From positions 65,364 to 129,363 of the forward strand of contig CAYWQB010000002.1 of the NCBI GenBank assembly GCA_964460785.1: DNA of 64,000 bases, read 5' to 3'. Made by a program: the position numbers and the translations under genes. This document shows, in pieces, positions 12,456 through 49,628 of the stretch. Position 1 is the stretch's first letter, and each line of letters begins with the position of its first letter. A model generated the notes under the pieces. That model did no database searches, was not told the origin of the DNA, and worked only from the letters and a program-made list of their open reading frames with translations. Source of the DNA: an uncultured bacterium. Lineage in GTDB: Bacteria; Chlamydiota; Chlamydiia; Chlamydiales; CAYWQB01.

Positions 12456-14540
12456 ATGAAAATCACCTACCGCCCTCGTATCCGAGTCACCCTGCTGACC
12501 CTCTTCCTCCTACTTGTGATCACCTCTACGGGTTGTATTATTTTCATCAATCACCGTATCTCCACAGAGGCATATCGAGAGGATGCCATCCGTGATATTG
12601 GCCATACACATGACTTTATTGAGTCTAGGATTACAACCTTTTTATACCCTGTCAATAACCTTCTCCACTACTTTCAAAAGCACTTTAATGAGCTCGACCC
12701 AGAGAAAAATAGTATTGATTCATTCAAAAAGAAGTACTTGAGTGTCTTACTCGCTCTTCCACAGTTTCGAGGCATTGGCATAGGAACCCCTTCTGGGGAT
12801 ATTTACTATGTATCAAAAGTTCCTCCCCATACGAAAGGGGCACCAAAAGAGGCTGTTTTTTACCTTTATGGCTGCTCTCAAGGCCTTACTTGTACAGAAG
12901 AATATTTAGATATCAATGGAGGAACAATCCCCCCCTACCCCAAAAGTAAAATCGATATTATCGATGCTCGAACAAGACCATGGTTTGAAGAAGCAAGAGA
13001 GAAGAGAGAGCAAATTTGGACAGAGCCCTACACATATACAAATGGAGACCGTGGCATTTCATCCGCTATGCCATTATTTACTGAAGGAAAGCTAAAAGGC
13101 GTGGCTTTTATTGACCTTACTCTTGATGAGCTTGCAGGGTTTTTAGCAGAAATTCCACTGGGGACTCATAGTTTTGCAGCGATTTTAGATAGCGAAGGAA
13201 ACTATGTCGTTAAGGGCCCTTCAAGTAACTCAGCACGCTACTACCAGCAAACACAAAACAGAGAGCTTCTACCCACTCTCTCACAAGCCCTTCTTAACCT
13301 GGGACACCTAGAGCAAGCGAAAACAATCAACCACAAAAACCTTCTCATTAACTTTTCCTCTATTCAAAAGCTTTTCGAGAATAACTGGTATTTTTGTTTG
13401 GCAATTCCAGAAACAGATTTTATTGGAAATGTTAAAGAGGCCAGTACAAAGGTGATTGGCTTTTCTTTAATCTTTGTTGCTATCGCCATCATCCTAAGCG
13501 TTGTCTTCGCTCGTTCCCTAGCGAGGCCCATCCTAGGACTTTCTGAAGAAATGCTTTTAATCAAGGATTTCAATTTAGAGAGTTCCAGGCATATTAACTC
13601 CTGGGTTTATGAAATCGATCTCATGAGCCAAGCCTTAGACTCTATGAAAAAAGGACTGACGGCCTTTGGGAGCTATGTCCCCAAAAGGCTTGTTCGCAAA
13701 TTACTGATCAATGGGGAGCAGGCAAAAATAGGGGGCAGAAAAAAAGCTCTGACGATTCTATTTACAGATGTATACGACTTTACCTCTATTTCAGAGAAAA
13801 GGCCCATCGATGAGGTGTTTCCCCTACTCTCTGAGTACCTTGCTCTAATTACTGATGAAATTGAAGAAAGTAAAGGAACCATTGATAAATTCATGGGAGA
13901 TGGGGTGCTTGCATTTTGGGGAGCTCCTGACCAGATCAAAAATTCGACAAAGACAGCCTGTCATTCCGTTTTGAAGTGCAAAGCAAAAGTTCAACAGCTC
14001 AATGAAGAGTGGCAAAAAAAGGGACTTCCTCCCTTCCATACTCGTTTTGCCTTGAACTATGGAGAAAGCTTAGTAGGAAATGTGGGCTCTCCATCTAGGA
14101 TGAATTATACGGTCATGGGAGATACCGTAAACACCTGTGCACGCCTAGAAAGCTTAAATAAAAACTTCCAGACAACCATCATTGTGAGCCAGCCTGTCTA
14201 TGAGAGAACAAAAGATCAGTTTTTATACCGAACCATCGACTTTGTTGCCCTAAAGGGGAAAAAAGAAGGAACAAAAGTCTATGAGTTACTAGCGGGATAT
14301 GAGGCAGAAGCAGCAATCCAGCCCTCTGAGGAAGATAAAAAGCTTTCTGCATTATCAGAGACTGGGTTTGAGGCCTATCTTCAAAAAGATTGGCAGGGAG
14401 CAAAAGCTGCCTACCAGGAAATCAAAACACTATTTCCTACAGATGTAACGGCTGAGATCTTCCTAGCAAGAATTGAGCAATTCGAAAAAGAGCCCCCTCC
14501 AGAAGATTGGCAGGGACTCTTCATCCTACACACGAAGTAG
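12456..14540 (+). CDS. membrane sensor adenylate/guanylate cyclase (Cache-like ectodomain, HAMP, class III cyclase, TPR-like tail)
   Basis: N-terminal TM, then a periplasmic Cache-like region (TRPWFEEA...WTEPYTYTNGDRGISSAMPLF) and a second TM. HAMP region (ARSLARPILGLSEEM). Cyclase motifs ILFTDVYDFTSISE, KFMGDGVLAFWGAP, MGDTVNTCARLES. Confidence 0.85.
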   Translation: MKITYRPRIRVTLLTLFLLLVITSTGCIIFINHRISTEAYREDAIRDIGHTHDFIESRITTFLYPVNNLLHYFQKHFNELDPEKNSIDSFKKKYLSVLLALPQFRGIGIGTPSGDIYYVSKVPPHTKGAPKEAVFYLYGCSQGLTCTEEYLDINGGTIPPYPKSKIDIIDARTRPWFEEAREKREQIWTEPYTYTNGDRGISSAMPLFTEGKLKGVAFIDLTLDELAGFLAEIPLGTHSFAAILDSEGNYVVKGPSSNSARYYQQTQNRELLPTLSQALLNLGHLEQAKTINHKNLLINFSSIQKLFENNWYFCLAIPETDFIGNVKEASTKVIGFSLIFVAIAIILSVVFARSLARPILGLSEEMLLIKDFNLESSRHINSWVYEIDLMSQALDSMKKGLTAFGSYVPKRLVRKLLINGEQAKIGGRKKALTILFTDVYDFTSISEKRPIDEVFPLLSEYLALITDEIEESKGTIDKFMGDGVLAFWGAPDQIKNSTKTACHSVLKCKAKVQQLNEEWQKKGLPPFHTRFALNYGESLVGNVGSPSRMNYTVMGDTVNTCARLESLNKNFQTTIIVSQPVYERTKDQFLYRTIDFVALKGKKEGTKVYELLAGYEAEAAIQPSEEDKKLSALSETGFEAYLQKDWQGAKAAYQEIKTLFPTDVTAEIFLARIEQFEKEPPPEDWQGLFILHTK

Positions 14541-15755: not shown

Positions 15756-16808
15756 ATGGGCGAAAAAACCGAAGAAGCAACCCCGAAGAAGCTGCGCGAT
15801 GCGCGCAAGAAAGGGCAAGTTGCTAAGTCTCAAGATTTTCCATCTGCCTTCACCTTTATGGTCTCGCTTTTTACTACCGTGTATTTAGGTGGGTATATCT
15901 ATGACCAATTTAGTGAGTTCTTTTTAACTTGCTTTTCAGCCATGGGCCAGTCCAATGCAAATACAGTGCTCGGGTTGATCAAGCATGGCCTGCATGTGAT
16001 TTTGATCTCGTCTCTTCCTGTTCTTGTGGCTACAGTGTCCATGGGGGTTTTAATCAATTTTTTGATTGTGGGGCCCCTTATCACTTTTGAAGTCTTCAAA
16101 CCTGATATCAAAAAGTTCGATGTCGTAGCGAACCTGCGTAACAAGTTTAAAATGAAAACGTTATTTGAACTTGTCAAATCGCTTTTCAAGATTGCTGGGG
16201 CTAGTGTCATCATCTACCTTTCTGTCGCTGATAAAATTGGTGAGGTTTCTTCCACTGCGACTCTCCCTGTGATAGCAAGCGTGATGGTCGCAAAAGGTTT
16301 TCTTTTAGATGTCGCATTCAAAGTTGGGATTTTTTTCCTTGCAGTTGCTCTTGCTGACCTCGTCTACCAAAAGAACAACTTCCGAAATGAAATGAAGATG
16401 GAAAAATTTGAGGTCAAGCAAGAGTATAAAGACTCTGAAGGAAACCCTGAAATCAAAGGGAAGCGAAAAGAGGTAGCGAGAGAGATCGCGTATGATAGCT
16501 CCCCATCCAAAGCTAGAAAAGCAAAAGCTGTGATTACCAACCCAACACATATTGCTGTGGGTATTGATTATATCCCTGAGTTGAGCCCCGCCCCTTTCAT
16601 CTTAGTGATGGGGAAAGGCCATATTGCGGAGAGAATTATTGAAGAAGCTGCAAAACATAGTGTCCCAATCATGAGAAATGTTGCTCTTGCGAGAACCTTA
16701 TACTATAAGGGGCGTGTGAATGAGATGATTCCTGAAGAGACCTTTGAAGCGATAGCTGATGTCATTATCTGGGTCCGATCGCTGGAAAAACAGAAGGAGT
16801 CCAAATGA
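15756..16808 (+). CDS. sctU: type III secretion export-apparatus switch protein SctU (CdsU/YscU)
   Basis: MGEKTEEATPKKLRDARKKGQVAKSQD N-terminus, four TM segments, NPTH autocleavage motif (VITNPTHIAVGIDY). Confidence 0.93.
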   Translation: MGEKTEEATPKKLRDARKKGQVAKSQDFPSAFTFMVSLFTTVYLGGYIYDQFSEFFLTCFSAMGQSNANTVLGLIKHGLHVILISSLPVLVATVSMGVLINFLIVGPLITFEVFKPDIKKFDVVANLRNKFKMKTLFELVKSLFKIAGASVIIYLSVADKIGEVSSTATLPVIASVMVAKGFLLDVAFKVGIFFLAVALADLVYQKNNFRNEMKMEKFEVKQEYKDSEGNPEIKGKRKEVAREIAYDSSPSKARKAKAVITNPTHIAVGIDYIPELSPAPFILVMGKGHIAERIIEEAAKHSVPIMRNVALARTLYYKGRVNEMIPEETFEAIADVIIWVRSLEKQKESK

Positions 16809-18943
16809 GTGGACCATTAAACAAGTTACTCAACTTCTTTGGAAACCCTAAGATCCTACAGGCGATCCTAAGGCAAAGTGACATCATTTTAGCGATTGTC
16901 TTGGTTGGGATTGTCTCCCTCTTGATTATCCCTGTTCCTCCTCCGATCATTGATATCTTGATCGCCTTTAACTTAACTGCGGCCATTTCCCTTCTTCTTG
17001 TTGCTGTCTATATCCCTTCGGCACTGCAACTCTCTATCTTTCCCTCCCTTTTGTTAGTTACCACTCTCTTTCGTCTGGGTGTGAATATCTCCTCCACACG
17101 CCAAATTCTCCTTCATATGGATGCAGGGGATATCATTTTTGCGTTTGGCAACTTCGTGGTTGGAGGAAACTACGTGGTGGGTGGTGTGATCTTTTTGATC
17201 ATTACACTTGTCCAGTTCATTGTTATTACCAAAGGGGCAGAACGTGTTGCTGAAGTAGCAGCTCGTTTCCGATTGGATGCGATGCCTGGTAAGCAAATGA
17301 GTATTGATGCGGATATGCGCGCTGGAGTCCTGGACCAAGATCAAGCCCGGTTAAAGCGTCTCGAGATCCAAAAAGAGAGTGAGATGTATGGTGCCATGGA
17401 TGGTGCTATGAAATTCGTAAAAGGGGATGCCATTGCCGGGATTGTCATCACATTGATCAACGTCATTGGGGGCTTGATTATTGGGGTTGCGATGCATGGC
17501 TTAACGATGGGGCAATCTGCACAAACCTACTCCTTATTATCAATTGGTGATGGCTTGGTCTCACAGATCCCAGCCCTGCTTATCTCTATCACAGCGGGTG
17601 TGGTTACCACTCGAGTTTCAAGTGATGATACAGACTCCAACTTAGGATCTGAGATCTCTGGCCAGCTCCTCAAGCAGCCAAAAGCTCTTTTGATTTCATC
17701 TGGGGTATTAATCGCTATGGGGGTCCTTGTCCCAGGCTTTCCTGCAGCTGTCTTCCTTCCGCTTGGTGCTGGTGTTGGCGCAATTGGCTATATGCTACTC
17801 CGTGCAAAAAAAACAGCTCCACAGGGAGTAGGAGCAAGTACAACAAGCTCTGCAAGCTCTGACACTAGTGTCGAAGGACACTCTGTGGTTCAGGGTGGAG
17901 GAATTGATGATTATGCACTCACTCTACCTATCATTTTAGAGCTTGGGGATCACCTATCTAACCTTATCAAGAAAGGAGGAGGGGTTGAGTTTGTCGAAGG
18001 GAAAATCCCACGTATGCGGCAAGCTCTCTACCATGACCTAGGTGTGCGCTTTCCTGGAGTACATGTGCGTACAGACACTCCTGGACTAGAAAGTACAGAG
18101 TACTCTATCCAGCTCAATGAAGTGCCTGTGATCCGTGGAAAGGTTCTTAAAGATTACCTCCTCACAAATGAGACAGAAGAACATCTCAACCGCTTCAACC
18201 TCCCTTATGCAAGCTATAAAAACTCTCTAGGTCTCCCCTCTCTCTGGGTAGAAAGGAAATACCAGGACCTTTTAACTAAGGCAGGCATCAAGTTTTGGGG
18301 AGAACTAGAAGTAGTCATTCTTCACATTTCCTACTTTCTCCGCTCACATGCTTCGGAGTTTTTGGGGATTCAGGAAGTGCGCTCTATGCTTGAGTTCATG
18401 GAAAAAACCTATCCAGACTTAGTCAAAGAGGTTACCCGCCTTGTCCCTCTTCAGAAGCTAACGGAAATTTTTAAGCGACTGGTGCAAGAGCAAATTTCTG
18501 TAAAAGACTTGCGCACGATCCTTGAATCCCTTAGTGAGTGGGCACAAAGTGAAAAGGACACCGTTCTTCTTACAGAATACGTACGCTCTTCACTAAAGCG
18601 CTATATCAGTTATAAGTACTCTCAGGGGCAGTCTGTGCTCTCTGTTTACTTACTTGATCCTGAAATTGAGGATATGATTCGTGGTGCGATTAAGCAGACC
18701 TCTGCGGGTTCTTACCTTGCTCTTGATCCAGACTCCGTACAAATGATTTTACAAGCTGTTCGTGCAACAGTGGGTCCTACCCCAGCGGGAGGGCAACCTC
18801 CAGTCCTGTTAGCTGCAATTGATGTGCGCCGCTTTGCGAGAAAGTTGGTAGAAGGAGAGTTTCCCGATATGTCTGTTGTATCTTATCAAGAGGTGATTCC
18901 TGAAATCCGTATCCAGCCCCTTGGGCGCATTCAACTCAGCTGA
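16805..18943 (+). CDS. sctV: type III secretion export gate SctV (CdsV/LcrD)
   Basis: FRLGVNISSTRQIL, AERVAEVAARFRLDAMPGKQMSIDADMRAG, MDGAMKFVKGDAIAG. 712 aa. 4-nt overlap with sctU. Confidence 0.95.
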   Translation: MSGPLNKLLNFFGNPKILQAILRQSDIILAIVLVGIVSLLIIPVPPPIIDILIAFNLTAAISLLLVAVYIPSALQLSIFPSLLLVTTLFRLGVNISSTRQILLHMDAGDIIFAFGNFVVGGNYVVGGVIFLIITLVQFIVITKGAERVAEVAARFRLDAMPGKQMSIDADMRAGVLDQDQARLKRLEIQKESEMYGAMDGAMKFVKGDAIAGIVITLINVIGGLIIGVAMHGLTMGQSAQTYSLLSIGDGLVSQIPALLISITAGVVTTRVSSDDTDSNLGSEISGQLLKQPKALLISSGVLIAMGVLVPGFPAAVFLPLGAGVGAIGYMLLRAKKTAPQGVGASTTSSASSDTSVEGHSVVQGGGIDDYALTLPIILELGDHLSNLIKKGGGVEFVEGKIPRMRQALYHDLGVRFPGVHVRTDTPGLESTEYSIQLNEVPVIRGKVLKDYLLTNETEEHLNRFNLPYASYKNSLGLPSLWVERKYQDLLTKAGIKFWGELEVVILHISYFLRSHASEFLGIQEVRSMLEFMEKTYPDLVKEVTRLVPLQKLTEIFKRLVQEQISVKDLRTILESLSEWAQSEKDTVLLTEYVRSSLKRYISYKYSQGQSVLSVYLLDPEIEDMIRGAIKQTSAGSYLALDPDSVQMILQAVRATVGPTPAGGQPPVLLAAIDVRRFARKLVEGEFPDMSVVSYQEVIPEIRIQPLGRIQLS

Positions 18944-18957
18944 TTTAGGATGGTGTT

Positions 18958-20151
18958 ATGACTCTTGACCCAAGCTTAGGCGCTCAATATATCCCCCCTC
19001 AGGGGCAAACAGATGTTAGCAAAGAGCTACAGGCTGCCAAGGCGAAAGCAAAGGAAATGCAAGCCGAGCAAGTTGATCTTAAGGAAGATATTTTTGATGA
19101 TCAGCAGGAAGCCTTCAACCCTTGGGCAGCAAATCGTGGCATCAAAGAGAAGATGAAAGAGCTCAAGCAACGAGTACCTGTAAAAGCTGAAACACCTAAA
19201 CAAGCCAAGCAAGTTGAGAGCAAAGAAGCAGCCTTAAAGCAGGGCCAAGACTCCGCAAAAGAATTTGTCAAGTCTAACCCAGAGTTAAAAGAAGAGGGGC
19301 TAACCAAGCTTTTGCAGCAGCTGCTTGAAGGAGACCACTCTCCTGAAGACATTTTGAAGATGGCACAAGATCTCCATGAAGATCCTTCTATGGTAGATCA
19401 AGTGCTGGAGTTTTTGAAGGAAAATAGCCCTCATGAGCTAGAGAAAAAGATCCGTAAAGCGCAAGACGACTTTCGAGCGCGCAAAAGAAGAGAGATTTCT
19501 GCAGGAAAAAATATCCAAGAACAAGCTCTTGAGTTTGCAGCACAGGGACTGGGCTCACCAACTTTTCTACGTAACCTCTACCGCAAGATTACCGGAGAGG
19601 AGATGCAGGAGCATGAACTCTTTGATGAGCTCTCTGGAAATTTTACCTACTCACAGTTACTAGAAGCGGTTCGCTTTTTGTTACATGCTCTAGGTGATGA
19701 CATTAAATCTAAAGGTCCTTCTATCCCTCGCGCCGAGCTACAAACCCTATTTGTAGAGGTGCGCAAGTTACAACTAGTTCTTGGTGTTTACCGATTTTTC
19801 CAAAGCCGCATGGACTTGCTTTACGATTACTTTGACCGCTATGATCTTGATTATCCAGAAGGACTTACTTTCCAAATTATTGCTCGCAGCTATGTCAAAC
19901 TCAGCAAAGATCACTACCCAAATAGCCAAAAGATGCTCGCTCTGGGTGCAGACTTTGGGTTAGAAGAAAATGTGCCTGGCCTCATGATTGTGCTCACGCA
20001 AATGAGAGATGCCGTAAGAAATACTTCCCAGCGGCTTTTCTACTCACCTAAGCATCGTCAGGACATGTTATCAGCGTATATTGAGGCTATTGAACAACTT
20101 GATGTCCTGCTTGATGAGGAAGAAGAAGAGGAAGAGGAGGAGGAAAGTTAA
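18958..20151 (+). CDS. copN: type III secretion gatekeeper, CopN/SctW-like
   Basis: 397 aa helical protein with an unstructured N-terminus and a poly-Glu tail. It occupies the sctV-copN-scc1-malQ position known from Chlamydia. The call rests mainly on synteny. Confidence 0.7.
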   Translation: MTLDPSLGAQYIPPQGQTDVSKELQAAKAKAKEMQAEQVDLKEDIFDDQQEAFNPWAANRGIKEKMKELKQRVPVKAETPKQAKQVESKEAALKQGQDSAKEFVKSNPELKEEGLTKLLQQLLEGDHSPEDILKMAQDLHEDPSMVDQVLEFLKENSPHELEKKIRKAQDDFRARKRREISAGKNIQEQALEFAAQGLGSPTFLRNLYRKITGEEMQEHELFDELSGNFTYSQLLEAVRFLLHALGDDIKSKGPSIPRAELQTLFVEVRKLQLVLGVYRFFQSRMDLLYDYFDRYDLDYPEGLTFQIIARSYVKLSKDHYPNSQKMLALGADFGLEENVPGLMIVLTQMRDAVRNTSQRLFYSPKHRQDMLSAYIEAIEQLDVLLDEEEEEEEEEES

Positions 20152-20619
20152 TTGATCCAGAATCCATTTGAACAGCTCATGGAAGAGTTAGGGCAAGGGC
20201 TTGAAATTGACCTCACTTCTCCTAAAAATGGGATTTATACTTTTCAACTAGAAGACAGGTACACAATACAAGTTCGCCCAGACCAATCAGGGCACTACGT
20301 ACTCTTCCTTTCAAAAGTTGCAGAGCTTCCCCCTGGAGCTTTTGCAACCCGTGTATTTAAGCGTGCTCTCCTTTATAATGGATCTGATCAAGTCCAACAT
20401 ACCATGCTGGGATATAGCTTAAAGACACACTGCCTCATTATGCATAATATGATTCCTCTTAAGGATACAACAGGTGAAGAGCTGACAAGCCTTTTTGCAA
20501 CTTTTTATGATGAGTTAAAGAAATGGTCTGAAGCGATTGCCAATGGGCAACCTGGCCCAGCAGAAATCGGCCTAGATTCAGACAGCAAAAATCCACCGCC
20601 ATTTGGCTTAAAGTTGTGA
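20152..20619 (+). CDS. scc1: class I type III secretion chaperone (Scc1/SycE-like)
   Basis: 155 aa, CesT/SycE-like size and pattern. TTG start abuts the copN stop. Synteny with chlamydial scc1. Confidence 0.6.
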   Translation: MIQNPFEQLMEELGQGLEIDLTSPKNGIYTFQLEDRYTIQVRPDQSGHYVLFLSKVAELPPGAFATRVFKRALLYNGSDQVQHTMLGYSLKTHCLIMHNMIPLKDTTGEELTSLFATFYDELKKWSEAIANGQPGPAEIGLDSDSKNPPPFGLKL

Positions 20620-40549: not shown

Positions 40550-41127
40550 AGGCCGACAATCGCAGGAAATACATGCTGTAAAATATCTGAAGAAAGAGAA
40601 CCTCTACGTAAAACCTTATGAGACTGCCCATCCGTATATACAATCGTTGAAGGTTCTGCATGGGAAGGGATTGCCCCTTCTAAAACAGGAAAATTCTCTC
40701 CAAAGCAAGCTTCCACTTGCTGTGCACTTTGCAAAGCAGGCTCCCCTGAAAGGTTAGCACTCGTCACAAAAAGGGGTCCTGTACGGGAGAGCAGCTCTAA
40801 TGTTTTGGCATGTGCAGGGACACGAAAGCCAATAGTAGGGAGACTTGTGAATGGGTTATCTTTCTTCACATGTGTGACTAAAGAAAATGCTCCAGGCCAC
40901 AGTGTTTGGACTCGTTCCCAAAGATCTTGGGGAAGGGGCTCTAGCCACTTGGCCACCTCTTGAGCTGTTGCACAGAGCAGTAAAATTTGCTTGCTTTCCG
41001 GCCGCCTTTTGATTTCATACAGTACGTCAGGGTTTTGGCAAGCTAAGCCATAAACTGTATCCGTCGGCACGGCGATTGCTTGTCCTTTTTGAAGAGATGC
41101 CTCTCCTTCAGCAAGAGTGATGAGCAT
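40546..41127 (-). CDS. tsaC: L-threonylcarbamoyladenylate synthase (YrdC/TsaC family)
   Basis: AIAVPTDTVYGLAC, RVP, TSANLSGEP motifs. 193 aa. Confidence 0.85.
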   Translation of the reverse strand: MLITLAEGEASLQKGQAIAVPTDTVYGLACQNPDVLYEIKRRPESKQILLLCATAQEVAKWLEPLPQDLWERVQTLWPGAFSLVTHVKKDNPFTSLPTIGFRVPAHAKTLELLSRTGPLFVTSANLSGEPALQSAQQVEACFGENFPVLEGAIPSHAEPSTIVYTDGQSHKVLRRGSLSSDILQHVFPAIVGL

Positions 41128-41132
41128 AATAA

Positions 41133-41915
41133 TTAAAATAGGTTGGTAAACTCTCCAACATGGGGACGCAAGCGTGCACGAAGACGAATCAAAGCTTTAG
41201 TATGAATTTGTGAGATCCTTGATTCAGTCACTCCCATGATCTGGCCAATTTCTTTTAACATGAGGTTTTCATAGTAATAAAGAACAAGAACTGTTTTCTC
41301 TTGTTCGGGAAGATTATAGACCGCATCTTCTATAAAATCAGCTATTTCCCGCCGGTCGGCAACCTCAAAACTTGTCTTGGCATTCTCATCAGGAATCCGC
41401 TCACTAATGTGGACTCCTGCTGCATCCTCATCAGAGGAACGATCTAAAGAGAGCAGGATAGCAGGACGCACACGGAGCACAAGCTCATCATAACGCTCAA
41501 TTGTTACTCCAAGATCCTTTGCCATCTCTTCATCTGTCGGCTCTCGCCCTAGCTTCTGCTGTAGGCGATGTGTTGCCTCTTCAATCTCATTTGCTTTTTG
41601 ATGGACACTTCTAGGCACCCAATCCAAGGAGCGCATCTCATCGATGATGCTTCCTTTAATCAAAAGTTGTGCATAGGTTTCAAACTTTGCTTTTCGGGAG
41701 GGATCAAATCGTTCTACTGCTTTAATGAGCCCTAAAACTCCCGTAGAATAAAGATCATCTCGCTGTACATGTTTAGGCAATGTGACGGCAAGCCTACCCA
41801 CAACGATCTTCACTAAGTAAAGATAGTGAGTAATGAGGTGGTCTCTTAAGCTCTCTTTTTTTGTACGGAGGTACTCTTTCCACACTTTTTTTATCTTGCC
41901 AGCATCTTCAGCCAT
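41133..41915 (-). CDS. fliA: RNA polymerase sigma-28 factor (FliA/WhiG family)
   Basis: Region 2 (DLYSTGVLGLIKAVERFDPSRKAKFETYAQLLIKGSIIDEMR), region 3 and region 4 (LPEQEKTVLVLYYYENLMLKEIGQIMGVTESRISQIHTKAL). 260 aa. Downstream of flhA, as in chlamydiae. Confidence 0.9.
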   Translation of the reverse strand: MAEDAGKIKKVWKEYLRTKKESLRDHLITHYLYLVKIVVGRLAVTLPKHVQRDDLYSTGVLGLIKAVERFDPSRKAKFETYAQLLIKGSIIDEMRSLDWVPRSVHQKANEIEEATHRLQQKLGREPTDEEMAKDLGVTIERYDELVLRVRPAILLSLDRSSDEDAAGVHISERIPDENAKTSFEVADRREIADFIEDAVYNLPEQEKTVLVLYYYENLMLKEIGQIMGVTESRISQIHTKALIRLRARLRPHVGEFTNLF

Positions 41916-41921
41916 CTCTTA

Positions 41922-42251
41922 CTACCCCCGCATGCCATCTTGCTCTGCTTCACTCTGTTCTATCACCCTTACTGCATCATCGATCGCTTCTACCTCTTCT
42001 AACTCATCTGACCGTGAATAGCCTTTTTTCAATTCTTCTTTTGTGCGCTGCACTTCGGTGGGGAAAACAACCTGCAGATAGAGGTGGCGAAAAATGACTT
42101 GGGATAAGATCCCAACAATCCACATCGTAGCAAGAGCATAAAGCACAGTCACTAACCACCCCTGTCCTGTAAACAAGCTGACTGCTGCCACCAAGCATGT
42201 ACTGATTAGGGTAAATAAAAAGACTAAGATAAAGATGTGCCTTTGATCCAT
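41922..42251 (-). CDS. small membrane protein (2-3 TM, acidic C-terminal tail)
   Basis: 109-aa ORF packed between flhF-like (1-nt gap) and fliA (6-nt gap). No family recognised. Confidence 0.5.
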   Translation of the reverse strand: MDQRHIFILVFLFTLISTCLVAAVSLFTGQGWLVTVLYALATMWIVGILSQVIFRHLYLQVVFPTEVQRTKEELKKGYSRSDELEEVEAIDDAVRVIEQSEAEQDGMRG

Positions 42252-42252
42252 C

Positions 42253-43602
42253 TTATCCTCTCATTTGTACTGTTTGGGAGAGCTCTTGCTTTGCTTCTAA
42301 CCTTTCTTCGAGCAAGATCTTTTTTGCGACCTCTTGACTATCGGCTATTTTCAGTCCTCGATCCAATGAAGAACTAGAAGTTAAATAGCTGAGAGGGAGC
42401 TTTGTCTGATGGCAAAGGTTTGCTAAAATTCCCACTGTCTCCGCACGGTCCATATGAGAAACCATTAAGCTATCTAGAGAGCTTGTCGCTAGCCCTCTCA
42501 GTTGCTGATTTAGATGGTGAAAAGGAGCTGATCCATGCACAACAAAATGACTTGTTACTTCAGGTAAGAGCTTTTGGATTCCTTTTTGTACCTCATGAAA
42601 GGACAGGTCTCCGATGCTTTGGCTTTCCACAGAGATAAAGACAAGGTCTGACACTGCTGCCGCATCGAGCTTCTGGTTCAGCTCTTTTAAGGTTGAGGCT
42701 TGAGAAATGCGAATCCCTTCCTTTGCCAGTTGCTCAACAAAGTGCATGGGCTTTTGGGAGGTGAGCTCCCCCTCTCCGAAGAGGATAATCTCTACTCTTT
42801 TACCTAGAGCCTGGACGTATTGCCTAGCAATGCGTGAGCACAGCATAAACTTTCCAGCCCCGCGCTCTCCATAAACCGCATGAAAGGAGGCTCGATAACG
42901 ATCTAAGCAAATGGGCCCATAGCAGGGAATTAACCGAGCAATTTCCCTCTTAAGAAACTGAAAGCAAGCTGTTCTCTTACTACTTGGTTTTGTTAAGTCA
43001 ATCGCTGGGAACTCTTGACTCATTTTATACTGCAAAGAAATCGCGAGTGGTTGTGAAAAGCCTTTGCGCTGTAAAAACCCCATAAAAGGAGCATCTGGGT
43101 TTTGAGGAGGAGCTCCCATCTCTCGAGCCTCCAAAGTCTCTTCATGTACACGCCGACGCACTTGCTCTTCATAACTACTTGGCTTTGCTAGTTGGGGCCG
43201 CACCTCTTCTACTTGCTCTTTAACCTCAAGCTTCCCTGCACAACGCTGCCGAAGGGCTTCTAAGGCTTTTCTAGAAGCCTCATCATCATTTTCCTGGCTC
43301 TTGTTGTTAGATGCATAAGTTGGTGGTACTGGAGCTATTTTTTCTCGTGCAGCAGAGCTTAAACTCAGTACATCTTCAGTATCCCTAGAGGGAGGCTTGC
43401 TTGCCTGAGGTTTCTCCATACTAGTTTCCTCCGCCTCCTCCTTGGCTGCGGTCACTTCAATCTCCATTCCCTTAGAGAACAATCCTTCTTTCTTCACAGG
43501 GCGTGATAAGAGAATCATCACCTCTTCGCCCATAGCTTGGCGAGCTTTTTCTGTCGCTTCTTGCTCTGTTTTTCCGCGAAATTTCTGTACTTTCATTCTC
43601 AC
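42253..43602 (-). CDS. flhF: FlhF-like SRP-type GTPase homologue with degenerate nucleotide-binding motifs
   Basis: N-terminus MKVQKFRGKTEQEATEKARQAMGEEVMILLSRPVKKEG....EIEVTAA parallels the FlhF B-domain. The C-terminal NG-like domain has GERGAGKF in place of GPTGVGKT. Position is flhA-flhF-...-fliA. Confidence 0.65.
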   Translation of the reverse strand: MRMKVQKFRGKTEQEATEKARQAMGEEVMILLSRPVKKEGLFSKGMEIEVTAAKEEAEETSMEKPQASKPPSRDTEDVLSLSSAAREKIAPVPPTYASNNKSQENDDEASRKALEALRQRCAGKLEVKEQVEEVRPQLAKPSSYEEQVRRRVHEETLEAREMGAPPQNPDAPFMGFLQRKGFSQPLAISLQYKMSQEFPAIDLTKPSSKRTACFQFLKREIARLIPCYGPICLDRYRASFHAVYGERGAGKFMLCSRIARQYVQALGKRVEIILFGEGELTSQKPMHFVEQLAKEGIRISQASTLKELNQKLDAAAVSDLVFISVESQSIGDLSFHEVQKGIQKLLPEVTSHFVVHGSAPFHHLNQQLRGLATSSLDSLMVSHMDRAETVGILANLCHQTKLPLSYLTSSSSLDRGLKIADSQEVAKKILLEERLEAKQELSQTVQMRG

Positions 43603-43612
43603 TTATCCCCAA

Positions 43613-45709
43613 TTAGGACATTAACACATCTGGGGCAATCACCCCGATAGAAACCACTTCCATGTCTGGAACAACCTCACTAAATGAAAGGACCGGCAGT
43701 TTTGGTAAGCTTCTCTCAACCAGCCGCCGAAAGGGTAAACGCAAGCTTGTACTCAGCAAGATGACAGGCTGAACCCCCTCTTGGATTCCCTTTTCTACAA
43801 ATGAGCGGATCGCAGCTGTAACCTTTTTTGTTGTTTCTGGCCGCATAACAATTCTCGAACCAAAGTCACTTTTTTGGATGCTTTCAGAAAGCATTTGTTC
43901 AACCTTTGGGTCAATGGCAATGATATGAAGTGTCCGTTCATCACCACCATACTGCTTAGAGATTGTCCGTGCAAGCCCATGGCGCACATATTCTGTTAAG
44001 AGATCAGAGTCTTGCGTCTGCACGGCATGATCAGCGAGCACCTCTAAGATGGAAGCTATATCCCGAATTGGGATTCGCTCACGCAGTAAATTTTGTAATA
44101 CTTTCAGAATTTGACCAAGAGTCATTTGGTTTGGAATCAATTCTTCGATAACAGCTGACGCATATTCTTTCGCATTTTCGATAAGGCGAGAGACTTCTTG
44201 TCGATTTAACAACTCATAAGCATGAGCATGAATCACTTCCGTAAGGTGTGTTGCTAAAACAGAGAGGGTATCCACTACCGTGTAGCCAGCAGCCTCTGCT
44301 TTTTCCTTATGTGCAGCAGAAATCCACAGAGCTTGCAGGCCAAAAGCAGGTTCAATGGTCTGAATCCCAGGGACGGATACCTCAACACTTCCGGGGTTCA
44401 TTGCTAAAAAGCTATCAAGCTGCAAACTCCCTGCAGCAACCTCTATCCCTTTGATTTTGATGACATAATGGTTTGAATCTAAAACCATATTATCACGGAT
44501 ACGTATGGGAGGCACAACAAGCCCTAACTCTGAGGCTATTTGTCGACGAATCACAGAGATTCTAGAGAGTAGGTCGCCTCCTTGCGCTTGATCCACAAGA
44601 GGAATTAAGCCATAGCCGAGCTCTATCTCCATGGGGTCTACATAGAGAACTTTTTCTACTTCATCATTTGTTGAAGGAGAGCTTTGGGCAGCTTCTGCTC
44701 CAACACCTTCCCTTTCCATCTCTTCAACTTTCTCTGCATTCACCTTCCACAAGAAAAATCCATAAGCACCAATTGCTAAAGACATCGGAATCATGACCAC
44801 CATGGGCATCCCTGGCACAAAGCTAAGGAAAAGCAAAATGGCTGCTGTGATCATGAGAACACGTGGATTATTGAGGAGCTGGTGGTGAAAGGTCTCCCCT
44901 AAAGACTCTTTTGAAGAGGCTCGCGTGACAATAATACCTGCTCCCACAGAGATGAGAAGGGCAGGGATCTGGGACACAAGTCCATCCCCTACTGTAAGAG
45001 TGGTATAGGTTTCCAGCGCTTCATCCCAAGCCATGCCCTTCACAGCCATGCCGATGATGAACCCTCCAAGGAGGTTTACAATCGTAATGATGATCCCAGC
45101 AATGGCATCACCACGCACAAACTTTGAGGCACCATCCATGCTTCCGTAAAAGTCAGCCTCAGCAGTGATTTTATTTCTTCGGTGCTTTGCCTCTTGCTCA
45201 TCAATGATGCCAGCATTTAAATCCGCATCAATACTCATCTGCTTACCTGGCATAGCATCCAGTGTAAAACGTGCGGAGACCTCTGCTATACGCCCTGACC
45301 CCTTGGTAATAACCACGAAGTTAATCACTGTGAGCAGGATAAAAATAATAATCCCGACAACTAAGTTCCCTCCAGTAACGAACTCTCCAAAGGTGCGAAT
45401 GATTTCCCCTGCGCGTGCTTCTGAAAGAATCATTCTCGTTGAGGCGATATTCAAGCCGAGCCGAAAAAGAGTAAGGAACAGTAAGAGCGAGGGAAATGAG
45501 TTAAACTCTAAGCTTTCTTCCACATACATTGTGATGAGTAGAGTTGCCACCGCAAGGACGATATTCACGGAGAGCAGCGAGTCGAGCAAAATAGGAGGTA
45601 GAGGGATAACCAGTAGCAGGATGATACTGACCACAGAAACGGCTAGTATGACATCGCTGTGTCTTTGGAACTTAGAAAATAGGCGGCCTGCGCCTACGGA
45701 GGTGGCCAT
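43613..45709 (-). CDS. flhA: flagellar-type export gate protein FlhA
   Basis: [78 protein letters not shown]. These are FlhA-type signatures, distinct from the SctV copy at 16805. Confidence 0.92.
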   Translation of the reverse strand: [698 protein letters not shown]

Positions 45710-45795
45710 AAGAAATTCCTACTGAGTTTCCAACAGTTCTTAGTGGCATATTATACAAATTTTGAAAAAACGCACGCTTAAAATAGCAAAAATCC

Positions 45796-46917
45796 TTAAG
45801 GCGTTGGTCCTTGCATTTGAGAGGCTGGGGATTCCTTCTGATTTAAGCGGTAGACATAGGCTAAGACTTCAGCCACAGAGTGATAGAAGTCAGGGGGAAC
45901 ATACATCCCCACATCAATTGTACGGTAAAGTCCTCGTGCCAACGGAGGGTTTTCAACGATGGGAATGTCATGCTCACGAGCCAGTTCTTTGATGGACTCT
46001 GCTAATTTCCTAGCTCCTTTGGCAACACACATAGGCGCACTCATTTTTTGTGCATCATACTTAATAGCAACAGCATAGTGAATTGGATTTGTCACCACAA
46101 CATCTGCATGCTCCACATTTGACTTCATTCTGCTTTGGATAAAAGAGACCATTGCTGAACGAAGGCGGGACTTCACCAAGGGGTCCCCTTCAGACTGCTT
46201 GGACTCATCCTTCACTTCTTGCTTAGTCATTTTCATCTCTTGACGAAAGCGGAACTTTTGAAAAACAAAATCCAACACCCCCACAACATTAAAAATCGCC
46301 GCCACGATGAGGGCCATCCAAAAGACTTCCCACATCAAGTAGTCATAAATTTTCTCTGGGTTGGTCTCCATTAAGCGTGAGATTGTAGGAAGCGAAAAGT
46401 GGATAAACAGGTAAAGAACAACAGCAACGATGAGTAACTTTGCCACCCCAAAGAGCGTTTTCATGACAACTCTTGAGTCAAAAAAACGCTTATAATTCTT
46501 CACATCAAAGATATTGAGCTTATCTAGCTTGGGCTTGAACTTTTCAAAAGTAATAAGCCATCCCATTTGCAGGACATTGGAAAAGATCCCCATAATAAAA
46601 AGGCAAACAAGCAAAGGGGCCATTAAAAGGGCCAAAGCATAGATCCCCTCTCTTCCCCAGTACACAATAGATTCGAAATCACCAAAAGGCTCCATGAGGT
46701 GATTGAAAATCCCTAAAATCAGGTCCCTCAATCGGTCAAAGAAAAACCCTGCTACAAGCAAAAAAAACAGCACGCCAGCAGAAAGCATTAGCCCCATGAT
46801 TAAATCTTGGGACTTCGATACATTTCCTTTCTTACGCGCTTCTTGTAATTTCCGCGGCGTAGCTTCTTCTGTTTTATCTTGCCAATCATCAGCCATAGCT
46901 CGTACAATAGTAGCCAA
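45796..46917 (-). CDS. flhB: flagellar-type export switch protein FlhB
   Basis: DKTEEATPRKLQEARKKGNVSKSQDL N-terminus, four TM, KMTKQEVKDESKQSEGDPLVKSR, cleavage-site region VVTNPIHYAVAIKY. Confidence 0.9.
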   Translation of the reverse strand: MATIVRAMADDWQDKTEEATPRKLQEARKKGNVSKSQDLIMGLMLSAGVLFFLLVAGFFFDRLRDLILGIFNHLMEPFGDFESIVYWGREGIYALALLMAPLLVCLFIMGIFSNVLQMGWLITFEKFKPKLDKLNIFDVKNYKRFFDSRVVMKTLFGVAKLLIVAVVLYLFIHFSLPTISRLMETNPEKIYDYLMWEVFWMALIVAAIFNVVGVLDFVFQKFRFRQEMKMTKQEVKDESKQSEGDPLVKSRLRSAMVSFIQSRMKSNVEHADVVVTNPIHYAVAIKYDAQKMSAPMCVAKGARKLAESIKELAREHDIPIVENPPLARGLYRTIDVGMYVPPDFYHSVAEVLAYVYRLNQKESPASQMQGPTP

Positions 46918-48752: not shown

Positions 48753-49628
48753 ATGATTTCTAGAAATGACCCCTGCTGGTGCGGCAGCAATAAAAAATGG
48801 AAAAAGTGCCATGCACCAGACCCTGGCCCAGAGCAAAGCCAACAGAACCTCAAAAAGCAGTACAAGAAAAAGTACCAGATCCTTCTTAAAACTCCTGAGC
48901 AAATTGAAGGAATCAAGCGCGCATGTAAGCTAACGGCAAAGATCCTTGATGCCTTGTGCAACTATGCAAAGGCGGGGGTAACAACCGAAGAACTCGACCA
49001 GTACAGCAGAAAGCTACACAAAGAAGCGGGAGCGATTCCTGCTCCTCTTGGTTATGGAGAGCCCCCATTTCCATGCAGTATTTGTACCTCTCTGAACGAG
49101 GTTGTTTGCCATGGCATCCCTAACAAGACGCCTCTAAAAGAGGGGGATATTTTAAATATCGATGTCTCTTCGATCTTAGATGGTTACTATGGGGACTGTA
49201 GCCGCATGGTCGTTATTGGAAAGACTACAGCTGAACGCCAGCTTGTTGTGGATGTTGCCCACGAGTCTTTAGAGCGCTCTATACGCATTCTGAAACCGGG
49301 AGTCCCCTTAAATGCAATAGGTAAAGAGATTGAGGACTATGCGACCAGCCAAGGCTGCTCGGTGGTTTACCAGTTTGTCGGGCATGGTGTGGGCTTAGAC
49401 TTTCATGAAGCGCCTCAAGTCATGCATTGTAAAAACAAGTCAGCAATCCCTTTGGTACCCGGCATGACCTTTACCATTGAACCAATGATCAATGCAGGGC
49501 ACCCAGATGCTGAAATCAACCCCCTCAATGAATGGGAAGCCGTAACAGTTGACCGCCGTGCAAGTGCCCAGTGGGAGCACACTGTCCTCATCACAGAAAC
49601 AGGGTATGAAATCCTTACCCTTCCTTAG
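48753..49628 (+). CDS. map: type I methionine aminopeptidase with N-terminal SEC-C zinc motif
   Basis: DPCWCGSNKKWKKCH, then MetAP motifs (VCHGIP, DVSSILDGYYGD, GHGVG, FTIEP, QWEHT). Confidence 0.93.
   Translation: MISRNDPCWCGSNKKWKKCHAPDPGPEQSQQNLKKQYKKKYQILLKTPEQIEGIKRACKLTAKILDALCNYAKAGVTTEELDQYSRKLHKEAGAIPAPLGYGEPPFPCSICTSLNEVVCHGIPNKTPLKEGDILNIDVSSILDGYYGDCSRMVVIGKTTAERQLVVDVAHESLERSIRILKPGVPLNAIGKEIEDYATSQGCSVVYQFVGHGVGLDFHEAPQVMHCKNKSAIPLVPGMTFTIEPMINAGHPDAEINPLNEWEAVTVDRRASAQWEHTVLITETGYEILTLP

Follow-up and report, generated by a model that had tools for sequence, protein, structure and literature searches.

Flagellar gene sets encoded alongside the injectisome were described in marine chlamydiae (Collingro et al., 2017, ISME J; PMC5604735). 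The single-amplified genome (SAG) SCGC AB-751-O23 was found to carry up to 28 flagellar genes, i.e., a near-complete set, and the authors concluded that the marine-chlamydial FlhA groups with the FlhAs of flagellated bacteria and works in a flagellum (PMC5604735). Flagellar sets were also reported for further chlamydial lineages (Dharamshi et al., bioRxiv 10.1101/577767), among these the Candidatus Sororchlamydiaceae (PMC9666466), and the age of the chlamydial flagellum was questioned by one study (PMC5826181). In the Chlamydiaceae, cryptic flagellar genes are present: flhA and fliA lie adjacent on one strand, as CT060 and CT061 in Chlamydia trachomatis (PMC10597470), and fliI and fliF are encoded in addition. 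For Chlamydia pneumoniae, binding of FlhA and of FliI to proteins of the injectisome was reported (PMC2830194), and the Chlamydiaceae FlhA is thought to work with the injectisome (PMC2830194, PMC5604735). Here, we describe a stretch of 64,000 nucleotides (the window) from an uncultured member of the Chlamydiales (assembly GCA_964460785.1, contig CAYWQB010000002.1), which encodes the flagellar export-gate proteins FlhB and FlhA in a compact operon at 41133-46917, and the injectisome proteins SctU and SctV elsewhere. The finding is a new example of the chlamydial flagellar system known since 2017. We consider it fairly probable that this operon encodes the export gate of the ancestral chlamydial flagellar system and is native to an environmental chlamydia that has a standard injectisome. 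Lesser points that are new concern an FlhF with degenerate motifs, a small protein restricted to chlamydiae (orf109) encoded at the position of flhG, and a flagellin with a predicted beta-propeller.

The minus strand between 40546 and 46917 is occupied by six tightly packed open reading frames (ORFs), separated from flhB to tsaC by 86, 10, 1, 6, and 5 nt. A sequence-only reading made before this analysis had given ORF coordinates, strand and gaps of 1-86 nt that all proved to be as stated. The features are:

45796..46896, minus strand: flhB, flagellar export-switch protein; the mechanical ORF extends to a TTG at 46917, with the ATG at 46896 as likely start

43613..45709, minus strand: flhA, flagellar export-gate protein, assigned by TIGR01398, PDB matches, conserved residues and a tree

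42253..43602, minus strand: flhF-like gene, SRP-type NG domain with degenerate GTPase motifs, assigned by TIGR03499, SRP54 and PDB FlhF profile matches

41922..42251, minus strand: orf109, small two-helix membrane protein with an acidic tail, without Pfam or NCBIfam match, at a conserved position

41133..41915, minus strand: fliA, sigma-28 RNA polymerase sigma factor, assigned by TIGR02479 and Sigma70 regions 2, 3, and 4

40546..41127, minus strand: tsaC, non-flagellar housekeeping gene (Pfam Sua5_yciO_yrdC, 130 bits), 5 nt past fliA

The likely flhB start (MADDWQDKTEEAT) is the one common to the homologues in the alignment. FliA scores 258 bits with TIGR02479 (FliA/WhiG, cut-off 190), all three Sigma70 regions score above their Pfam cut-offs, and PRK05911 is among its two best models. 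It is the last gene inside 41133-46917; tsaC lies just outside that range and is possibly co-transcribed. Scans of the operon for sigma-70 promoters and terminators returned no more sites than shuffled sequence.

Both export-gate pairs of the window belong to the Pfam families FHIPEP and Bac_export_2 (FlhB: 393 bits with Bac_export_2), and they were told apart by the curated equivalog models of NCBI with their cut-offs. FlhA reaches 866 bits with the flagellar model TIGR01398 (cut-off 772) and 663 bits with the SctV model TIGR01399 (cut-off 692); FlhB reaches 368 bits with the flagellar model TIGR00328 (cut-off 349) and 312 bits with the SctU model TIGR01404 (cut-off 358). The reverse was observed for the other pair. 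SctV scores 917 bits with TIGR01399 and 649 bits with the flagellar model, and SctU scores 461 bits with NF004950 (cut-off 434), which we take to be derived from Chlamydia, 359 bits with TIGR01404, and 298 bits with the flagellar model. The best PDB matches of FlhA are FlhA chains (587, 542, and 492 bits) followed by SctV chains (463 and 356 bits), whereas for SctV the "low calcium response protein" 7alw, a full-length chain (724 bits), and "LcrD" 6wa6 (560 bits) rank ahead of FlhA chains (394 bits). The injectisome genes form a cluster of their own, which is flanked by ychF and malQ:

15756..16808, plus strand: sctU, injectisome export-switch protein (NF004950, TIGR01404)

16805..18943, plus strand: sctV, injectisome export-gate protein (TIGR01399, PDB 7alw and 6wa6)

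18958..20151, plus strand: copN/sctW, gatekeeper (HrpJ, T3SS_CopN_3rd, TIGR02568 LcrE with 95.7 bits, cut-off 89.5)

20152..20619, plus strand: scc1, CesT-type chaperone (CesT, 42 bits)

Together with its flanking genes, the cluster has the order of C. trachomatis CT092 to CT087. Within that range, CT089 is copN and CT090 is lcrD (PMC10597470). Like the marine chlamydiae, the organism has its flagellar operon alongside a full chlamydial injectisome cluster. The equivalog cut-offs together with the cluster context bear out what the sequence-only reading had claimed, namely that the window carries two export-gate pairs, which are distinct and of which the second is of the flagellar type; the four family motif strings that it had quoted are all present in the sequences.

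The window FlhA and SctV are 37% identical and FlhB and SctU 34%, while FlhA shares 45-55% identity with the FlhAs of free-living bacteria (Bacillota, Fibrobacterota, Planctomycetota, and others). An FlhA search of genome contigs returned at least 80 non-chlamydial loci, which share the universal DAMPGKQM pattern. Among the best 90 FlhA matches, every organism that is named is chlamydial (Chlamydiia, Chlamydiales, a Waddliaceae metagenome-assembled genome (MAG), a "Simkania negevensis" MAG, and SCGC AB-751-O23); within these 90, the closest FlhA outside the source genome is 83% identical and that of SCGC AB-751-O23 67%. A neighbor-joining tree built from 34 sequences places the window FlhA in a chlamydial FlhA clade with 100% bootstrap support, and an inner clade with SCGC AB-751-O23 is supported by 96%. 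The chlamydial clade is nested among the FlhAs of free-living bacteria. The window SctV served as outgroup and is the sole SctV in the tree, other SctVs being covered by the reciprocal PDB matches. The sequence-only reading had named a place of the second gate inside the injectisome clade as the sign of a duplicated injectisome; in the tree, the window FlhA groups with flagellar FlhAs instead.

FlhA is also the most conserved of 20 syntenic proteins that were compared with those of the closest relative (82.8% identity), followed by FliA (76.9%); FlhB shows 65.6%, and the values of the remaining 17 lie between 38 and 69%. When aligned to Salmonella FlhA, the protein keeps R147, R154, D158, K203, D208, the GYXLI motif (as GYGLI), F459, and T490, the last being a hydrophobic-dimple residue with a role in export in Salmonella, and it has Glu at the position of D456. 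Flagellar export and substrate recognition are described as requiring the GYXLI motif as well as F459 of the dimple (PMC9431611). Neither the motif nor the dimple residues are present in the window SctV.

Synteny was assessed from the DNA around six homologous FlhAs. The order flhB-flhA-flhF-small ORF-fliA recurs in four further chlamydial lineages, including SCGC AB-751-O23 (GCA_900093645.1), in which the operon order is identical to that of the window. The compared loci are as follows:

L083 (closest relative): map, nlpC, truA, flhB, flhA, flhF, small ORF, fliA, tsaC, dap genes, PLD

L085 (2.86 Mb genome): the run as in L083, then flagellin

L088 (TARA Waddliaceae MAG): the core as in L083, with PLD and flagellin nearer

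L086 and a JGI contig (SCGC AB-751-O23): flhB, flhA, flhF, small ORF, fliA

L087 (2.26 Mb contig ctg182834), 10001-13377: flhA-flhF only, with flhB upstream and orf109 and fliA downstream absent

The gene tsaC follows fliA in L083, L085, L088, and L089, whereas SCGC AB-751-O23 does not have it there. Among the loci whose contigs extend far enough, a PLD gene with an adjoining flagellin gene is found downstream in L085, L088, and the closest relative (L083/L095). The neighborhood of map, truA, tsaC, the dap genes, and PLD is conserved across distant chlamydial lineages. The G+C content is 0.41-0.47 across the window and 0.458 over the operon, and the 10 kb past the 3' end of the window contain housekeeping genes and a CT021-family gene. 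Identical proteins are encoded in the 331,527-nt NCBI contig and in the Logan assemblies SRR15635848, SRR15635857, and SRR15635858, and the same arrangement is present in independently assembled contigs of SRR15635848 and SRR15635857. Since the G+C content is flat, the FlhA matches are chlamydial and the contig carries both the injectisome cluster and the CT021-family gene, the locus is a native part of an environmental chlamydial genome and neither a recent import nor an assembly chimera.

Among the compared loci, that of the window is the most complete, and the others have eroded unevenly between lineages, which fits the "differential gene loss" of Collingro et al. (PMC5604735). In this erosion, L087 marks an intermediate stage, with the full operon on one side and the flhA-fliA pair left in the Chlamydiaceae on the other. 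The Chlamydiaceae do not encode flhB, flhF, orf109, or the flagellin, and their FlhA is shorter and divergent. The remark in the sequence-only reading that C. trachomatis has flhA (CT060) beside the sigma-28 gene (CT061) is correct (PMC10597470), as is its statement that only these two genes of the locus are retained there. In two long-read assemblies with identical FlhA, L084 and L085, which apparently derive from one organism, flhB is split into pieces of 76 and 286 residues (L084) or 76 and 293 residues (L085). As truA, dapB, flhF, and more neighbors are split as well in L084, long-read indel errors are most likely the cause, rather than pseudogenisation.

The layout resembles the flhA-flhF-flhG-fliA operons that are found in polar flagellates such as Vibrio, Pseudomonas, Campylobacter, and Shewanella, and this likeness, already pointed out in the sequence-only reading, holds as far as the common order of flhA, flhF, one gene and fliA is concerned. 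Three differences were observed. Polar flagellates encode the MinD-type ATPase FlhG where the window encodes an unrelated membrane protein of 109 residues, their FlhF has GTPase motifs which the window protein does not have, and in the window flhB lies directly upstream of flhA without fliPQR. The position held by flhG in these bacteria is taken by orf109. Its predicted structure consists of a helical hairpin and one long helix, with an acidic tail, and searches of Pfam and NCBIfam gave no match. In all five further chlamydial loci in which this interval is covered, the gene is situated between flhF and fliA, and a metagenome search with an orf109 alignment placed it beside fliA in three short contigs. 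The family comprises about 40 clusters, and all those with an organism name are chlamydial; ten clusters have a longest contig of equal length to that of a chlamydial FlhA match, suggesting that both are encoded on one contig, and only 33 representatives were found among 1.84 billion proteins.

The protein encoded between flhA and orf109 scores 68.6 bits with TIGR03499 over residues 3-273 (cut-off 174) and 22.4 bits with SRP54. A profile of six chlamydial homologues scores higher with PDB entries of FlhF (123 and 113 bits) than with SRP54 and FtsY (at most 77 bits), and the position of the gene directly downstream of flhA is conserved in the chlamydial family, which on these grounds is assigned as FlhF. 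Canonical FlhF motifs are G1 GxxGxGK[ST], G2 DxxR, G3 DTxG, and G4 TKxD. In the window protein all of them are degenerate (G1 GERGAGKF, G2 DxxR absent, G3 ISVES, G4 SHMD), and FlhF of the closest relative (L083, 12113-13447) is similarly degenerate; the FlhFs of L085, L086, L088, and L091 are canonical where covered. As all GTPase motifs are degenerate yet the ORF is intact in both genomes, the window protein is probably a pseudo-GTPase, and since intact motifs were not found it is named FlhF-like here. The degenerate motifs and an FlhA that is at most 83% identical to its matches outside the source genome set the window lineage apart from the marine chlamydiae. An unusually fast evolution of FlhF (38% identity to the closest relative, compared with 83% for FlhA) was considered and dropped: 38% is the low end of the range of the neighboring housekeeping proteins, and FlhA is the outlier.

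A flagellin-like gene about 6 kb away had been noticed in the sequence-only reading. The gene is real and lies 5.6 kb from fliA, and its upstream region contains a promoter candidate:

33854..35533 (ORF to 35557), minus strand: flagellin gene (559 amino acids), ATG at 35533 with a GGAGG ribosome-binding site

35590..35617, minus strand: candidate sigma-28-type promoter of the flagellin gene, CTCAAG-N17-CGATA, 84 nt before the ATG

Both Pfam domains are above their cut-offs (Flagellin_N 74.7 bits, Flagellin_C 42.1 bits). The AlphaFold model (pLDDT 69) shows long N- and C-terminal helices round an all-beta core, and the top PDB matches in Foldseek are flagellar filaments (9au6 first, Salmonella FliC) and beta-propellers. 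The central domain of about 300 residues is all-beta with repeated YYxD and VYLD-like motifs, and Foldseek matches this part to the beta-propellers of TolB, LRP4, and YVTN; a match to Pfam PF08450 (SGL) is present in one homologue. The outer domain is therefore predicted to be a beta-propeller, which is unusual for a flagellin. In the Geovibrio thiophilus filament 9au6 and in flagellinolysins, conserved helical termini likewise flank a large insert; the predicted beta-propeller, at the moderate confidence of pLDDT 69, distinguishes the window protein from these described large-insert flagellins. We know of no other flagellin with a beta-propeller insert. The search for flagellin homologues gave 18 matches; the locus of one, P0137, was set aside as it is Firmicute-like, with CsrA and HPr kinase.

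The sigma-28 consensus is TAAAGTTT-N11-GCCGATAA, and its spacing is matched by the window motif, with TCAAG replacing TAAAG. The TCAAG variant was found only through the comparison of orthologous upstream regions. TCAAG-N17-CGAWA has a single match on both strands of the 64 kb (35590-35616, minus strand), with 0.30 expected from shuffles. The window, L085, and L088 share CTCAAG-N17-CGA(T/A)A after an A-rich tract, 83-97 nt before the flagellin start, and the closest relative (L095) has CTCAAG-N16-CGATAA, with a spacer one nt shorter. The sites in the relatives are at about 21315 (L085), 17528 (L088), and 2912 (L095). In total, four of five chlamydial genomes have the motif upstream of flagellin, L096 being the one without it. 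A relaxed pattern occurs about once per 30 kb in other chlamydial loci, and three exact placements are far beyond chance. The helical D0/D1-type termini and the promoter motif are kept across genera. The motif and its conservation upstream of flagellin suggest that FliA from the operon transcribes this gene, as in the usual flagellar hierarchy.

Taken as a working system, FlhA would provide the flagellar type III export apparatus with its ring-shaped gate and its docking platform, as family membership and conserved residues imply, and FlhB would act as the substrate-specificity switch. Their genes would probably be transcribed together with those for an FlhF-type placement factor, the small membrane protein and FliA, given the tight spacing. 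FliA would then drive late genes including flagellin, which would be exported through the FlhA/FlhB gate and build the filament, while the injectisome pair would separately serve effector secretion. The flhA-fliA pair of C. trachomatis would be an eroded remnant of the same operon.

Several explanations compete with a native flagellar export-gate operon. That the second pair is merely a duplicated injectisome gate is hardly conceivable: the two pairs do share their Pfam families, but FlhA and FlhB fail the SctV and SctU cut-offs and pass the flagellar ones, the best PDB matches are FlhA chains, the identity to the sct paralogues in the window is 34-37% versus about 50% to foreign FlhAs, and the neighbors of the pair are flhF, fliA, and flagellin. 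A recent horizontal transfer from a flagellated bacterium, or a chimeric mis-assembly, could account for the fact that most chlamydiae do not have these genes, and it would accord with the doubts raised about the age of the chlamydial flagellum (PMC5826181). It is nonetheless very improbable in view of the uniform G+C content, the monophyletic chlamydial FlhA clade with its 100% support, the neighborhood conserved across lineages, the same arrangement in the assemblies of SRR15635848 and SRR15635857, and a contig that also carries the chlamydial injectisome cluster and, in its 3' extension, the CT021-family gene. Unlikely, though to be taken seriously, is a relic or repurposed module, in which most structural genes are lost and FlhA and FlhB secrete the beta-propeller "flagellin" or other proteins without motility, either in concert with components of the injectisome or by serving as an alternative to its gate. 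This would extend the model proposed for FlhA, FliI, and FliF of the Chlamydiaceae, where the binding of C. pneumoniae FlhA and FliI to injectisome proteins (PMC2830194) provides a precedent, and the unusual outer domain of the flagellin would fit it.

A number of observations speak for such a relic or otherwise count against a native flagellar operon that is intact in function. None of the other flagellar genes looked for (fliPQR, fliF/G/M/N, fliI, rod, hook, motAB) was detected across the window and the 10 kb past its 3' end, flhG is absent from the operon, and FlhF has lost its GTPase motifs in this clade. Loss is graded in chlamydiae and partial sets exist, as L087 with flhA-flhF only and C. 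trachomatis with flhA-fliA only show. To our knowledge, sigma-28 serves the control of developmental genes and is retained by every chlamydia, so that the presence of fliA by itself is no indication of flagella. The autocleavage site of FlhB, which is NPTH in L085 as well as in the SctU of the window, has Ile in place of Thr (NPIH) in the window FlhB, L083, and L088, although Asn, Pro, and His of the site are kept. The NCBIfam flagellin models score at most 113 bits versus 72.7 bits for FlgL (cut-off 127), and none reaches its own cut-off. The -35 element of the candidate promoter is TCAAG and not the consensus TAAAG, and neither the exact sigma-28 consensus TAAA-N14-16-GCCGATAA nor TAAAG-N17-CGAWA has a match in the window. 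Finally, in the supplement of Koestlbacher et al. (2021; PMC8242063) the flagellar sets of published chlamydial MAGs are described as "semicomplete to complete".

Against the relic stands that flagellar genes normally lie scattered over several clusters, so that their absence from 74 kb of contig is weak evidence. Furthermore, FlhA is far closer to the FlhAs of flagellated bacteria than to the Chlamydiaceae type (318 bits with the 584-position model PRK05910, cut-off 670), and it retains the docking residues for flagellar chaperone-substrate complexes, which are absent from the window SctV. The flagellin keeps its termini and promoter across genera, and the syntenic operon of SCGC AB-751-O23, whose FlhA falls into the same well-supported clade, belongs to a near-complete set (PMC5604735). 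Because FlhA and FlhB are under constraint, the FlhA docking residues and the flagellin with its promoter are conserved, and a set of up to 28 flagellar genes is present in the SAG with the orthologous operon, we regard a functional flagellar system in this organism as likely. The sequence-only reading had described the locus as a secretion module that is retained in part and whose substrate and function are unknown. In this form the description is not supported: orthology and synteny link the operon to that of marine and environmental chlamydiae with near-complete sets, the product of the flagellin gene, which has a conserved sigma-28-type promoter, would be the obvious candidate substrate, and FlhA keeps the residues needed for export in Salmonella. 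A further scenario, which we hold to be quite doubtful, concerns the clade formed by the window organism and the L083/L095 relative. In these, the export gate may have been loosed from polar-flagellum control, with FlhF as a GTPase-dead scaffold, orf109 in place of FlhG and the beta-propeller flagellin serving host attachment or another non-swimming role beside or instead of motility.

Other genes of the window were recorded alongside. The ORF orf517 (49615-51168, minus strand; 517 residues) was considered as an unrecognized flagellar protein and rejected, as it looks like a membrane-anchored coiled-coil protein instead: it has an N-terminal hydrophobic region, a long coiled coil and no family match. 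ORFs of similar size without Pfam match lie near the flagellar operon in L083 (44% identical), L085, and SCGC AB-751-O23, and the protein may be membrane-anchored and Inc-like. Two genes upstream of sctU-sctV, a protein of 694 residues (12456-14540, plus strand) combines a dCache sensor, an adenylate/guanylate cyclase catalytic domain and TPR. An apparent catabolic cluster of the arginine succinyltransferase type (52270-57260, plus strand) encodes an M20 peptidase, a class III aminotransferase, AstA and an aldehyde dehydrogenase, which is unusual for an intracellular bacterium; its first three genes are also found in L083, whose locus stops inside AstA. At 57388-60147 and 62367-63203 (both minus strand), two eukaryotic-type Ser/Thr kinase-domain proteins flank an ORF of 157 residues, and a protein of 278 residues with an Ion_trans (voltage-gated-like channel) domain is encoded nearby.

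The finding leaves the current picture of chlamydial biology unchanged. A further lineage, represented by a long contiguous contig, now speaks in favor of ancestral flagella in the Chlamydiota with stepwise loss. The erosion becomes visible at one locus, from the full operon in the window and in SCGC AB-751-O23 to flhA-flhF in L087 and flhA-fliA in C. trachomatis. The sigma-28-type promoter of flagellin, the orphan orf109 and the degenerate FlhF offer targets for studying how a chlamydial flagellum is assembled and regulated.

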